Origin: Shigella phage JK32
Length of the DNA: 64,000 nt
Strand: one strand, 5' to 3'
Sequence record: MK962753.1
This document shows, piece after piece, positions 26,080 to 28,125 of this stretch; the first letter of the stretch is position 1; the number at the start of each line of letters is the position of its first letter. The notes below the pieces were generated by a model, which worked only from the letters and a program-made list of their open reading frames with translations, did not search any database and had not been told where the DNA came from. Both the position numbers and the translations under genes were made by a program.

Positions 26080-27827
26080 GCGTGATTGAAGGGATTAACG
26101 CAATGGCGACGGATGAACACCCGCTACATTTAGCACATCCGTCTACACTAGAAACTAAAATTGATTCAAATGGTATTGAATGGATTTTATCAAAGCATGA
26201 TGATAAATGGTATCCTAAAAAGTTTTCTGACTATCTGAAATTAAACAGACCGCAGAAAATAAGGATGCAAAGCACTGATCCAACAAATTATAAGTTCTTT
26301 AAAGATAGTGACAATATTCGCACGCGGTATATGCGATTAAAGAACTTGCGAAGGGCGAATATTAAAACTCAGTATACCCCTGAAATGATCGCAGAGTGGA
26401 AACGATGCCGTAAAGATATTGTGTATTTTGCCGAAACCTATTGCGCAATTACACACATCGACTACGGTACAATCAAAGTACAATTGCGTGATTATCAGAA
26501 AGATATGCTTAAGATCATGCATGAAAACCGCATGAGCGCACATAAACTCAGTCGTCAGCTAGGGAAAACTACCGCTGTAGCAATATTCCTTGCTCACTAC
26601 GTTTGTTTTAATAAAGACAAAGCGGTAGGTATACTGGCACACAAAGGGTCAATGGCTGTTGAAGTTCTAGAACGTACCAAACAAGCAATTGAACTATTAC
26701 CAGACTTCTTACAGCCTGGTATTGTTGAATGGAACAAGAAATCAATTGTTCTTGAAAACGGATCGAGTATTGGCGCTTATGCGTCGTCTCCCGATGCCGT
26801 GCGTGGTAACTCTTTTTCGTTTATCTACATTGACGAATGCGTTAGCGGCTTGACCAAAGTTACACTACGTGATAAACTAACAGGTGAGATTAAAGAATAC
26901 ACTATGTTAGAGGTTAAGATGATGGCTATTCAGCAAAAGTTGAATAAAATTAAAGAGTTATTACTGCCGCACGCAAAAAATCCAAACTTGACTCGCGGTT
27001 GGGTTCCTGGCGTAACTATGGATATGTTGGAAGAATACAAAGAGTTTTTCGACACACATTTTCATAAAACCGAATCCATGAGAGAGTTTATCGCATGTGT
27101 AACAAATGATATTCTGGATCGTCCCGTTTGCTCTACGAAAGGATGTGGTTGTCGTGTGGAATTAAGCAAGAATGGTCCATACTATAAGGATAAATGCCAT
27201 AACTACTGCACAGAAAAATTGCCTGGGCGCTTAGGGAAAATATCATCAAAAATGGTTATCTTCCGTCGTTTTGAGTGTCCAGAATGCGGGATGTATGCTG
27301 TTAAAAATGAGGGTTATCTTTGCCGTAAATGTGGTTACGCAAAACAAGGCGAGGCAATGAAACGTCTATACGTCGAAAACGGCGATGAAATGCGCAAAAA
27401 GTGCAACGGTAAGAAAACACCAGAACAAAGGGCTAAACAGTCCGAGCAAGTTAAACAGCGTATTCTGAATGGTGAATTTACTCCTAAGACGACTAACCGT
27501 CTTAATCACAATCGCATTAAGTATGATGGTCATAACTTTCGTAGCTCATGGGAACTATCTTTCTATAAAGATATGAAAGCTAAAGGCGTTAATATTGAAT
27601 ATGAAACGCTTCGTGTTACATACAAATTTAAAGGAAAGAATCACGTTTATATTACGGACTTCGTAGATCACGATAATAAGATCGTTTATGAAGTTAAGCC
27701 TAAGCGACTTGTTGAAGACCCAAAAACAATGGCGAAAGAACACGCCGCTATAGAATGGTGTAAAGAAAACGGATATACTTTCGAATATATTCACGAGGAT
27801 TATATTAATGAACTTTTGGAATCTTGA
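26076..27827 (+). CDS. 17: terminase large subunit N-terminal (ATPase) fragment fused to short intein N-piece and a Cys-rich nuclease-like domain
   Basis: First about 254 aa match T4 gp17 N-terminus (Walker A SRQLGKTT, Walker B region IYIDE); homology stops at a Cys ([10 protein letters not shown]...), followed by Zn-ribbon-like Cys pairs and RSSWEL...DFVDHD...EVKP motifs. Confidence 0.75.
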
Positions 27828-28125
27828 CGGATTCGAAGTTCTCACCGAAAACGGTTTTAAAGATTTTGATGGCATAAAAGAAACATTTGGTATGATCTGG
27901 AAACTAACATTTAGTGATGGATCATACCTTGAATGCTCAGAAAGCCATAAATTAAAATCAAGTGACGGCTTTTTCATTGAAGCCGATGATATAGAGGCTG
28001 GATTCGTTACGTCTTCCGGCCTTACTGTCATTAGTAAAGATTATGTTGGTGAAGACTTTTTATACGATCTAACTAATGTTGCCGATGGCAACCATTACAC
28101 TACAAACAATGTAGAATCTCACAAT
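26838..28125 (+). mobile_element. intein-like element (short N-piece, nuclease-like insert, long C-terminal Hint piece) interrupting gene 17
   Basis: Begins with Cys right after the Walker B Glu; ends with ...VESHN followed by Cys +1 (CAFIQNW); element is 1288 nt (not a multiple of 3) and spans the frame change between the two ORFs. Confidence 0.65.

Follow-up and report, generated by a model that had tools for sequence, protein, structure and literature searches.

Atypically split inteins, in which a short N-terminal intein piece (IntN) is completed by a long C-terminal piece (IntC), have reportedly been described in the large subunit of phage terminase (TerL) by Thiel in 2014, Bachmann and Mootz in 2015, and Stevens in 2018: AceL-TerL, GOS-TerL, and Cat-TerL. 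AceL-TerL is cold-adapted. These class-1 inteins with Cys1 and Cys+1 have an N-piece of 25-37 amino acids (aa) and a C-piece of ~104-115 aa, originate from Antarctic-lake and ocean metagenomes, and are valued protein-labelling tools that have so far been known only from uncultured metagenomic phages. Cat-TerL was derived as a consensus from AceL-TerL and GOS-TerL, and all three of these atypically split inteins trans-splice in vitro (PMC11766414); the split after helix α1 is the atypical S2 site described for AceL and GOS TerL (PMC13014065). In the "fractured genes" of Dassa et al. (2009, PMC2677866), two adjacent halves on the same strand carry split-intein pieces at the break, and a free-standing GIY-YIG or Vsr-like endonuclease between them overlaps the downstream half by 6-69 bp and supplies its start; one gp17-like terminase locus from Lake Gatun is among them. 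In this study, we analyzed the terL (gene 17) locus of Shigella phage JK32 (MK962753.1), a Krischvirus (RB49-like coliphage), in a stretch of 64,000 nucleotides (nt; referred to as the window), in which terL is divided between two overlapping open reading frames (ORF1 and ORF2) by a split intein of the AceL/GOS-TerL type, the N-piece of which is fused to a nuclease-like module.

The JK32 element shared with AceL-, GOS-, and Cat-TerL the host protein, the class-1 residues (Cys1 and Cys+1), the sizes of the two pieces, and the S2 split after α1, and its IntC was ~35% identical to CatC. It differed in being present in cultured coliphages growing at 37 °C and in that the N-piece continued in frame into a 300-aa endonuclease module. 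With the fractured genes, it shared the adjacent same-strand halves, the split-intein pieces at the break, and an endonuclease ORF of which the 3' end supplied the downstream start (with a 20-nt overlap), whereas the endonuclease was a TnsA-like PD-(D/E)xK enzyme fused to IntN. Both this intein family and a fractured gp17 locus have, therefore, been published before, and the unusual part is the fusion of the nuclease to the N-piece, not the split intein itself. The recognition of the element in cultured coliphages, the in-frame endonuclease-IntN fusion kept over a large divergence, and a TnsA-like PD-(D/E)xK family as an intein partner appear to be new in the literature searched, which covered few subscription journals; a prior description is conceivable.

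An atypically split intein at the Walker B motif of TerL

Alignment with the TerL of Sf20, an intein-less sibling, placed the element exactly between the Glu and Cys of the Walker B region (IYIDE|CAF): the continuous FSFIYIDE|CAFIQNW of Sf20 corresponded to FSFIYIDE|CVSGLTKV in ORF1 and NNVESHN|CAFIQNW in ORF2 of JK32. Cys1 was C255 of ORF1 (codon 26838), the codon for the terminal Asn was located at 28123..28125, and the +1 Cys was C107 of ORF2 (28126). When the element was removed in silico, the resulting 607-aa protein aligned without gaps through the junction with T4 gp17 (3ezk, E 1.8e-282). The Pfam profile Terminase_6N was cut at a single point, with profile positions 5-106 in ORF1 (E 1.4e-25) and 107-213 in ORF2, while the match to Terminase_6C fell in ORF2, the C-extein of which also matched T4 gp17 and the nuclease domain of RB49 gp17 (3c6a). 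Since IYIDE in T4 gp17 is the Walker B motif including the catalytic Glu, neither fragment alone can be an ATPase. These alignments of both ORFs confirmed the insertion point given in the initial annotation, which had been made by a model from the sequence alone and had placed the insertion directly after the Walker B Glu, with Cys1 at its start, a terminal His-Asn, and Cys+1 behind it; the length that it reported, 1288 nt and not a multiple of 3, was also reproduced by the mapped junctions (26838..28125, 3n+1).

The N-piece aligned with the N-termini of contiguous TerL mini-inteins, and the joined IntN and IntC matched "Consensus engineered intein CatC" (PDB 6dsl_B) in phmmer with E 8.6e-13 (query residues 31-133). 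An exhaustive HMMER search yielded an intein family of 522 cluster representatives. Of the 209 matched stretches in the best 150 of these 522 hits, 42 were contiguous mini-inteins within TerL-like proteins, and 105 were IntC pieces located at the extreme N-terminal end of a protein. Homologous inteins occupied several sites in TerL, and contiguous mini-inteins at the same DE|C site were found in Vibrio phage vB_VmeM-32 and Desulfovibrio phage 7757. The set of class-1 intein residues was complete: C255 in ORF1, and S44-x-x-H47 (block B), D87 (block F), H105-N106 (block G), and C107 in ORF2. In an alignment of 58 homologues, H47, D87, and N106 were invariant, and the penultimate H105 was kept in at least 90%.

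Using this alignment, AlphaFold2 (AF2) modelled the joined pieces as a Hint fold (pLDDT 97, pTM 0.88) with strands at residues 7-12 and 18-22, and helix α1 at residues 23-32 spanning the junction between IntN and IntC. A Foldseek search of the PDB with this predicted structure returned 61 matches at E ≤1e-3, including VidaL (TM-score 0.84), gp41-1, Npu DnaB, and Cat (35% identity), and the top 50 were all inteins or bacterial intein-like (BIL) domains. The split was of the S2 type, with a short IntN (~27 aa of the Hint part) and a long IntC (106 aa), the natural N-fragment reaching 329 aa owing to the fused nuclease. The initial annotation had proposed this geometry, including the long C-piece with block B and F/G motifs and the kinship to the atypical split TerL inteins of metagenomes, to which the CatC match and 35% identity agreed; its sizes of ~26 and 105 aa needed correction to ~27 aa (255-281) and 106 aa including the initial Met. 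A scan of PHROGs with the joined intein found no intein family. A word-index search for protein homologues with the artificial IntN-IntC fusion returned nothing, a limitation of the index in view of the 522 representatives from HMMER, and the 46-aa IntN region alone, a query that was too short, gave no match in the PDB.

The start of ORF2, a GAGGA sequence followed by ATG, lies inside the 3' end of the nuclease ORF, and was kept in 7 of the 7 lineages compared, in which it coincided with conserved "ED" codons of the nuclease. The ORF1/ORF2 overlap in the relatives was 20, 13, or 4 nt. In all carriers, the stop codon of the nuclease ORF (27825..27827 in JK32) and a +1 frame change separated the nuclease from IntC; a canonical maxi-intein encodes N-Hint, the endonuclease, and C-Hint in one ORF and splices in cis, and the JK32 element was divided between two. 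The different frames of the halves, their 20-nt overlap, and the separate Shine-Dalgarno sequence of the downstream half had all been read correctly from the start (Table 1).

A TnsA-like nuclease in frame with the N-piece

No stop codon was present between IntN and the nuclease: ORF1 ran on in frame for ~300 aa. A helical connector, a putative DNA-binding region, came first, and AF2 placed its helices at model residues 2-18, 22-26, 34-47, and 54-62 with a pLDDT of ~95. It was kept in the fused lineages Thanatos-2, P0001, and L024 (see below), and was missing from the 199-aa free-standing versions. The following Cys-rich region consisted of module 1 (C352, C357/C359, C374, and C378) and module 2, a CxxC...CxxC ribbon (C401, C404, C416, and C419) that was also kept in free-standing homing endonuclease genes (CYECG...CNPCG). 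The Pfam match to Zn_ribbon_3 was weak; the Cys pattern suggests that both modules bind zinc.

The C-terminal core matched PF08722 (Tn7_TnsA-like_N) with a score of 34.5 bits, above the threshold of 26.5 (E 3.1e-8), and phrog_15427 ("endonuclease") with E 1.2e-48, while PF05367 (Phage_endo_I) was a near-match only. Together with the continuous ORF, the PF08722 match substantiated the Cys-rich nuclease-like domain that the initial annotation had located in frame after the N-piece. Among 113 homologues, the candidate catalytic residues E510, D528, and E539 were invariant, and K541 was kept in at least 90%; an RSSWE motif at residues 489-493 of ORF1 was also conserved. The core was modelled with a pLDDT of more than 94, and its closest structural match in Foldseek was TnsA (1t0f/1f1z; probability 1.0, root-mean-square deviation 3.5 Å over 126 columns), followed by I-Bth0305I (3r3p; probability 1.0); Vsr was also similar. 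Membership in the EDxHD/Vsr-like group was considered and rejected: the conserved motif was ITDF...YE(V/I)KP without a conserved His, the EDxHD motif with its His general base being missing, and the likeness was in the fold only.

TnsA and nucleases of the T7 endonuclease I type have the same restriction-endonuclease fold and E/D/ExK catalytic constellation. The JK32 enzyme differed from TnsA in the absence of a transposon context, the TnsA C-terminal domain, and TnsB/TnsC partners, and its family was joined to zinc-ribbon and NUMOD3-like modules, as in modular phage homing endonucleases. With I-Bth0305I and the EDxHD enzymes, it shared a restriction-enzyme-like fold in a phage homing endonuclease family and an occurrence in fractured genes, but its classical D...ExK signature without the EDxHD His and its assignment to TnsA_N by Pfam indicated a different family. 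A profile search found at least 1134 database proteins of this family, mostly free-standing, 140-300 aa in length, and on phage-sized contigs, and some carried NUMOD3 DNA-binding repeats. Their names were uninformative, at most "endonuclease" or "TnsA endonuclease N-terminal domain-containing". A GAGG-N6-ATG sequence was found internally at M282 in the Krischvirus copies; since this Met was absent from the other fused lineages, including Thanatos-2 and P0001, the nuclease is probably made as a fusion.

Table 1. Coordinates of the terL locus features of JK32 within the window.
Feature	Position	Strand	Basis or detail
ORF1	26076..27827	+	583 aa, ORF list
TerL (gp17) N-extein, ORF1 1-254, ending in IYIDE	26076..26837	+	Terminase_6N, collinearity with Sf20/T4 gp17
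N-intein piece, ORF1 C255-K281 (~27 aa), β1, β2, and helix α1 of the Hint fold	26838..26918	+	Mini-intein alignment, AF2
Helical connector, putative DNA-binding region, ORF1 282-351	26919..27128	+	Continuous ORF, AF2 helices
Two Cys-rich modules, putative zinc-binding	27129..27332	+	Cys pattern
PD-(D/E)xK nuclease core, TnsA_N-like, ORF1 ~466-583 and stop	27471..27827	+	PF08722, phrog_15427, AF2/Foldseek
Shine-Dalgarno GAGGA (27795..27799), 8-nt spacer, and ORF2 ATG (27808)	27795..27810	+	Inside 3' end of nuclease ORF
ORF1/ORF2 overlap	27808..27827	+	20 nt
ORF2	27808..29187	+	459 aa, +1 frame relative to ORF1
C-intein piece, ORF2 M1-N106	27808..28125	+	CatC match, conserved residues, AF2/Foldseek, dN/dS
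TerL C-extein, ORF2 C107-V459 and stop	28126..29187	+	Rest of ATPase domain, RNase-H-like nuclease domain

Carriers, related architectures, and selection

The carrier survey covered 74 phage records with a DNA-level match to terL. The whole element with the same ORF coordinates, frames, and length was found in kaaroe, G2494, TB34, SAP, and phiS (5 of the 74 records); GoldenSnicker also carried it, its record beginning inside the element. Another 54 records matched in the extein parts only (90-95% identity), and most of these had an uninterrupted terL and a few a different intein. The element is, thus, polymorphic for presence and absence, ~7 of ~60 Krischviruses being carriers, and the carriers stem from different laboratories and countries (Denmark, Germany, China, and elsewhere). 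The complete genome of phiS contained a single terL locus, and this phage, therefore, has no intact back-up terL. Outside the Krischviruses, the fused two-gene layout was found in three lineages sharing only ~35-57% identity: Shewanella phage Thanatos-2 (42%), the metagenomic T4-like P0001/L017 (57%), and contig L024. The authors who described Thanatos-2 noted that a 1.2-kbp insertion leaves it with two coding sequences for the large terminase (PMC7530303).

A three-gene terL locus with the same insertion site was found in Yersinia phages phiR1-RT and TG1, Salmonella phage SG1, E. coli phage HY03, Pseudomonas phage PspYZU05, and contig L025: TerL-N with a 33-41-aa IntN ending in a stop codon, a free-standing endonuclease (199-293 aa), and IntC with TerL-C. 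In these phages, IntN was homologous to that of JK32, IntC was 58-64% identical, and the nuclease core was ~47-51% identical; in contrast to JK32, the endonuclease was a separate 199-aa ORF with its own ribosome-binding site, and lacked the ~100-aa helical and first zinc region. A free-standing endonuclease ORF was verified in phiR1-RT, SG1, PspYZU05, and L025, against the single 583-aa ORF of JK32. In contigs L022 and L023, the two halves were present with no endonuclease, and a stop codon and a 2-nt gap separated the genes. The start of the IntC gene was, in all lineages, GAGGA and ATG within the last codons of the upstream ORF, with an overlap of 20, 13, or 4 nt, an arrangement that Dassa et al. 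described for fractured genes. The Walker B intein of TerL, therefore, occurred in four states: a contiguous mini-intein, split without an endonuclease, split with a free endonuclease, and split with an endonuclease fused to IntN. The JK32 layout looks like a half-way stage toward the step in the model of Dassa et al. at which the endonuclease comes to lie in frame with the intein (PMC2677866).

The same TnsA-like family was also found between the halves of a canonical split intein in the UvsW helicase of metagenomic T4-like contigs (L018/L019, positions 3001-3717, and L020/L021). IntN and IntC in this locus were ~100 and ~35 aa, respectively, the break was again at the Walker B DE|C, and the endonuclease overlapped the downstream start by 11-41 nt. 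The TnsA-like enzyme looks like a third family of fractured-gene endonucleases beside the GIY-YIG and Vsr-like ones, and this recurrence at the intein breakpoints of two host genes is, among the evidence at hand, the strongest indication that the nuclease is a homing endonuclease.

The ratio of nonsynonymous to synonymous substitution rates (dN/dS) among the Krischvirus copies was ~0.06 for the nuclease, ~0.02 for IntC, and ~0-0.04 for the N-extein. Since these low values are similar to those of the exteins, the nuclease and IntC are functional proteins under purifying selection. Between JK32 and kaaroe or G2494, the element diverged by 0.4-0.5% and the adjacent exteins by 2.1% (Fisher p 5e-4 and 9e-5, respectively), while phiS showed the opposite pattern, with the element more diverged than its flanks. 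This discordant divergence and the presence/absence polymorphism would fit horizontal spread. A co-conversion tract was sought by the density of single-nucleotide polymorphisms, and the flanks next to the junction were not unusually diverged.

Interpretation and genomic context

In our view, it is very probable that trans-splicing by a split intein of the AceL/GOS-TerL type restores TerL, and that a homing endonuclease is covalently attached to the N-fragment of this intein. According to this model, one late transcript would give two polypeptides: TerL(1-254)-IntN(27 aa)-connector-Zn modules-PD-(D/E)xK nuclease (68.0 kDa), and IntC(106 aa)-TerL C half (52.0 kDa), the latter started from the GAGGA/ATG within the end of the nuclease ORF. 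IntN would dock onto IntC to complete the Hint fold, Cys255 would form a thioester, Cys107 of ORF2 would attack, and Asn106 would cyclize. The predicted product is a seamless 607-aa TerL (69.5 kDa) with an intact IYIDE-CAF ATPase center, and the by-product a non-covalent complex of the 38.6-kDa IntN-nuclease with the 11.9-kDa IntC. In a mixed infection, the nuclease would cut an intein-less terL near the insertion site, and recombinational repair would copy the 1288-nt element into the cut allele. We give about even weight to the further proposal that the element is a natural "two-piece maxi-intein", in which the nuclease is made only within the TerL-N/IntN precursor and is freed by trans-splicing as the IntN-nuclease/IntC complex.

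Several points weigh against this interpretation. Splicing and DNA cleavage in this phage are deduced from sequence and modelling. The curated intein profiles missed the element, with no match in Pfam at E ≤10 or in NCBIfam at E ≤1, and this reflects a limit in the sensitivity of those profiles for this intein clade; the initial annotation had named a lack of Hint-domain profile hits as grounds for refutation, but homology was established by the more direct evidence of the CatC match (E 8.6e-13), the 522 representatives, and AF2/Foldseek. In the nuclease module, the zinc region was modelled with low AF2 confidence, the Foldseek E-values were weak (8e-3), and a separate nuclease product started at M282 is possible. 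No characterized atypical split intein offers a precedent for an appendage of ~300 aa on IntN, which might make splicing slower or subject it to regulation. T4-like phages generally recombine as mosaics, which could also produce the discordance between the element and its flanks; the window itself contains a recombinant patch at 28476..29176. Here and beyond 29476, JK32 carried ~8-18 substitutions per 100 nt relative to all relatives, and dS of the C-extein was ~0.41 for JK32 versus 0.05-0.14 among the others; since the patch sets JK32 apart from carriers and non-carriers alike, its divergence is unrelated to the intein.

Among the alternatives to trans-splicing, an assembly or sequencing frameshift, in which a 1-nt indel near 27800 would hide a maxi-intein that is in reality contiguous and has its endonuclease in frame, would account for the 3n+1 length and for frames overlapping by just 20 nt, but is practically out of the question: the same 1288-nt length and frames recurred in six independently sequenced Krischviruses, the three distant lineages at ~35-57% identity also broke between the nuclease and IntC, a start codon and Shine-Dalgarno sequence were kept at the break, and a natural split at this structural site is known from related, characterized TerL inteins. 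The split described in the initial annotation is, thus, a property of the phages and not an error in one record. Programmed +1 frameshifting in the 20-nt overlap, producing a 1040-aa precursor with a cis-splicing maxi-intein, is very improbable. Although ORF2 lies in the +1 frame and the end of ORF1 (UCU UGA C) loosely resembles the prfB shift site, CUU UGA C, no slippery motif was kept in overlaps of 20, 13, or 4 nt with differing sequences, and the conserved signal was GAGGA with ATG; moreover, the three-gene relatives would require two shifts, the endonuclease-less L022 has two separate genes with a stop codon and a 2-nt gap, and members of the family trans-splice as separate fragments. Endonuclease-bearing introns are common in T4-like phages, and a Campylobacter phage terL has been described with an intron and an intein (PMC3322345). 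Nevertheless, a group I or II intron with an endonuclease ORF, removed from the RNA, is scarcely credible for JK32, in which no Rfam match was obtained at E ≤1 in 26500..28500, both boundaries bore intein catalytic residues, and coding ran uninterrupted across both boundaries between extein and element. The halves may also act without covalent ligation, the intein pieces being a dimerization handle or the halves self-associating like the split NrdA of Aeh1; "genes in pieces" made by homing endonucleases function in T4-like phages, as cited in a passage of PMC2677866, and splicing in JK32 is itself a deduction. This was judged improbable because the break directly follows the catalytic Glu in the ATPase center, and because Cys1, the block B His, block F Asp, His-Asn, and Cys+1 were all kept, with IntC strongly constrained. 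A pure dimerization handle is disfavored, since it would not need the splicing residues.

The role of the nuclease is a separate matter from trans-splicing. It may no longer function in homing, being either a decaying passenger or co-opted for another task, e.g., to exclude competing phages or to assist in packaging. The presence of the element in only ~7 of ~60 Krischviruses and the unusual fusion to the TerL N-half are compatible with this. On the other hand, the nuclease retained a low dN/dS and (near-)invariant catalytic residues in 113 homologues, its family recurred exactly at the split-intein breakpoints of two host genes, and the divergence of the element and its flanks was discordant, and decay is, therefore, unlikely; we regard a loss of homing as a whole as unlikely, but still worth considering. 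A role in competition or exclusion would be compatible with homing by the attached endonuclease.

In phages such as kaaroe, which plate on E. coli K-12, this relative of the atypical split TerL inteins would allow natural trans-splicing to be measured in vivo in an essential protein, together with when it occurs and what it costs the phage, and a mesophilic member with an N-piece of ~27 aa could serve directly as a tool. The in-frame IntN fusion is a concrete candidate for the missing step in the acquisition of endonucleases by inteins, and the four architectures form an evolutionary series that is genetically testable in E. coli K-12. The two-piece maxi-intein, if true, would be a predicted and so far unobserved intermediate between a free-standing and a fully integrated endonuclease, and would add the TnsA-like PD-(D/E)xK family to the known intein-partner endonucleases. 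In existing records, these ORFs appear under "hypothetical protein", "similar to large terminase protein", or "frameshift", and an annotation pipeline may mistake a viable phage of this kind for one in which the terminase is broken.

The two ORFs of terL in the JK32 late cluster are part of a gene order of the T4 type: gp15, TerS (25582..26079), ORF1, ORF2, and tail sheath (29222..). Neither the T4 late promoter TATAAATA nor terminators were found inside the element, and matches to sigma-70-like promoters there were no more frequent than expected by chance; hence, nothing pointed to a separate transcription unit. Exact matches to TATAAATA occurred nine times in the window, all on the + strand (5625, 16437, 29183, 34747, 35598, 37352, 42485, 50573, and 55311), marginally above the 5.6 expected by chance, and that at 29183 lies just upstream of the tail-sheath gene.

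At the insertion site itself, the Asp codon of IYIDE (26832..26834, 4-6 nt upstream of the insertion) was GAC in all carriers and GAT in Sf20, AV108, and FL15; this was the only marker linked to the junction, and, with only three element-less alleles, it may reflect either co-conversion or a differing target site. The terL of the Krischviruses AV108 (L006), FL15 (L007) (terL locus at 401-3217), MIZ4, and MIZ5 contained a different element: a LAGLIDADG intein of 331 aa, contiguous and inserted at the P-loop (SRQLGK|T), which begins with Ala, ends with THN|T, has a Cys in block F, and looks like a class-3 intein. The terL of FL15 is mis-annotated as "replicative DNA helicase DnaB".

Further arrangements were observed in more distant phages. 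The TerL of vB_VmeM-32 contained two mini-inteins, at the P-loop and Walker B, and the terL of Campylobacter phage CP21 contained three inteins, one of which was split by a large ORF. In Campylobacter phage CPX (L015, 2998-4326), a gene for IntC and TerL-C directly followed the gp13 neck gene, and no TerL-N half was found adjacent to it. This suggests that the TerL halves of CPX are encoded at separate loci, as a dispersed split intein like that of cyanobacterial DnaE.

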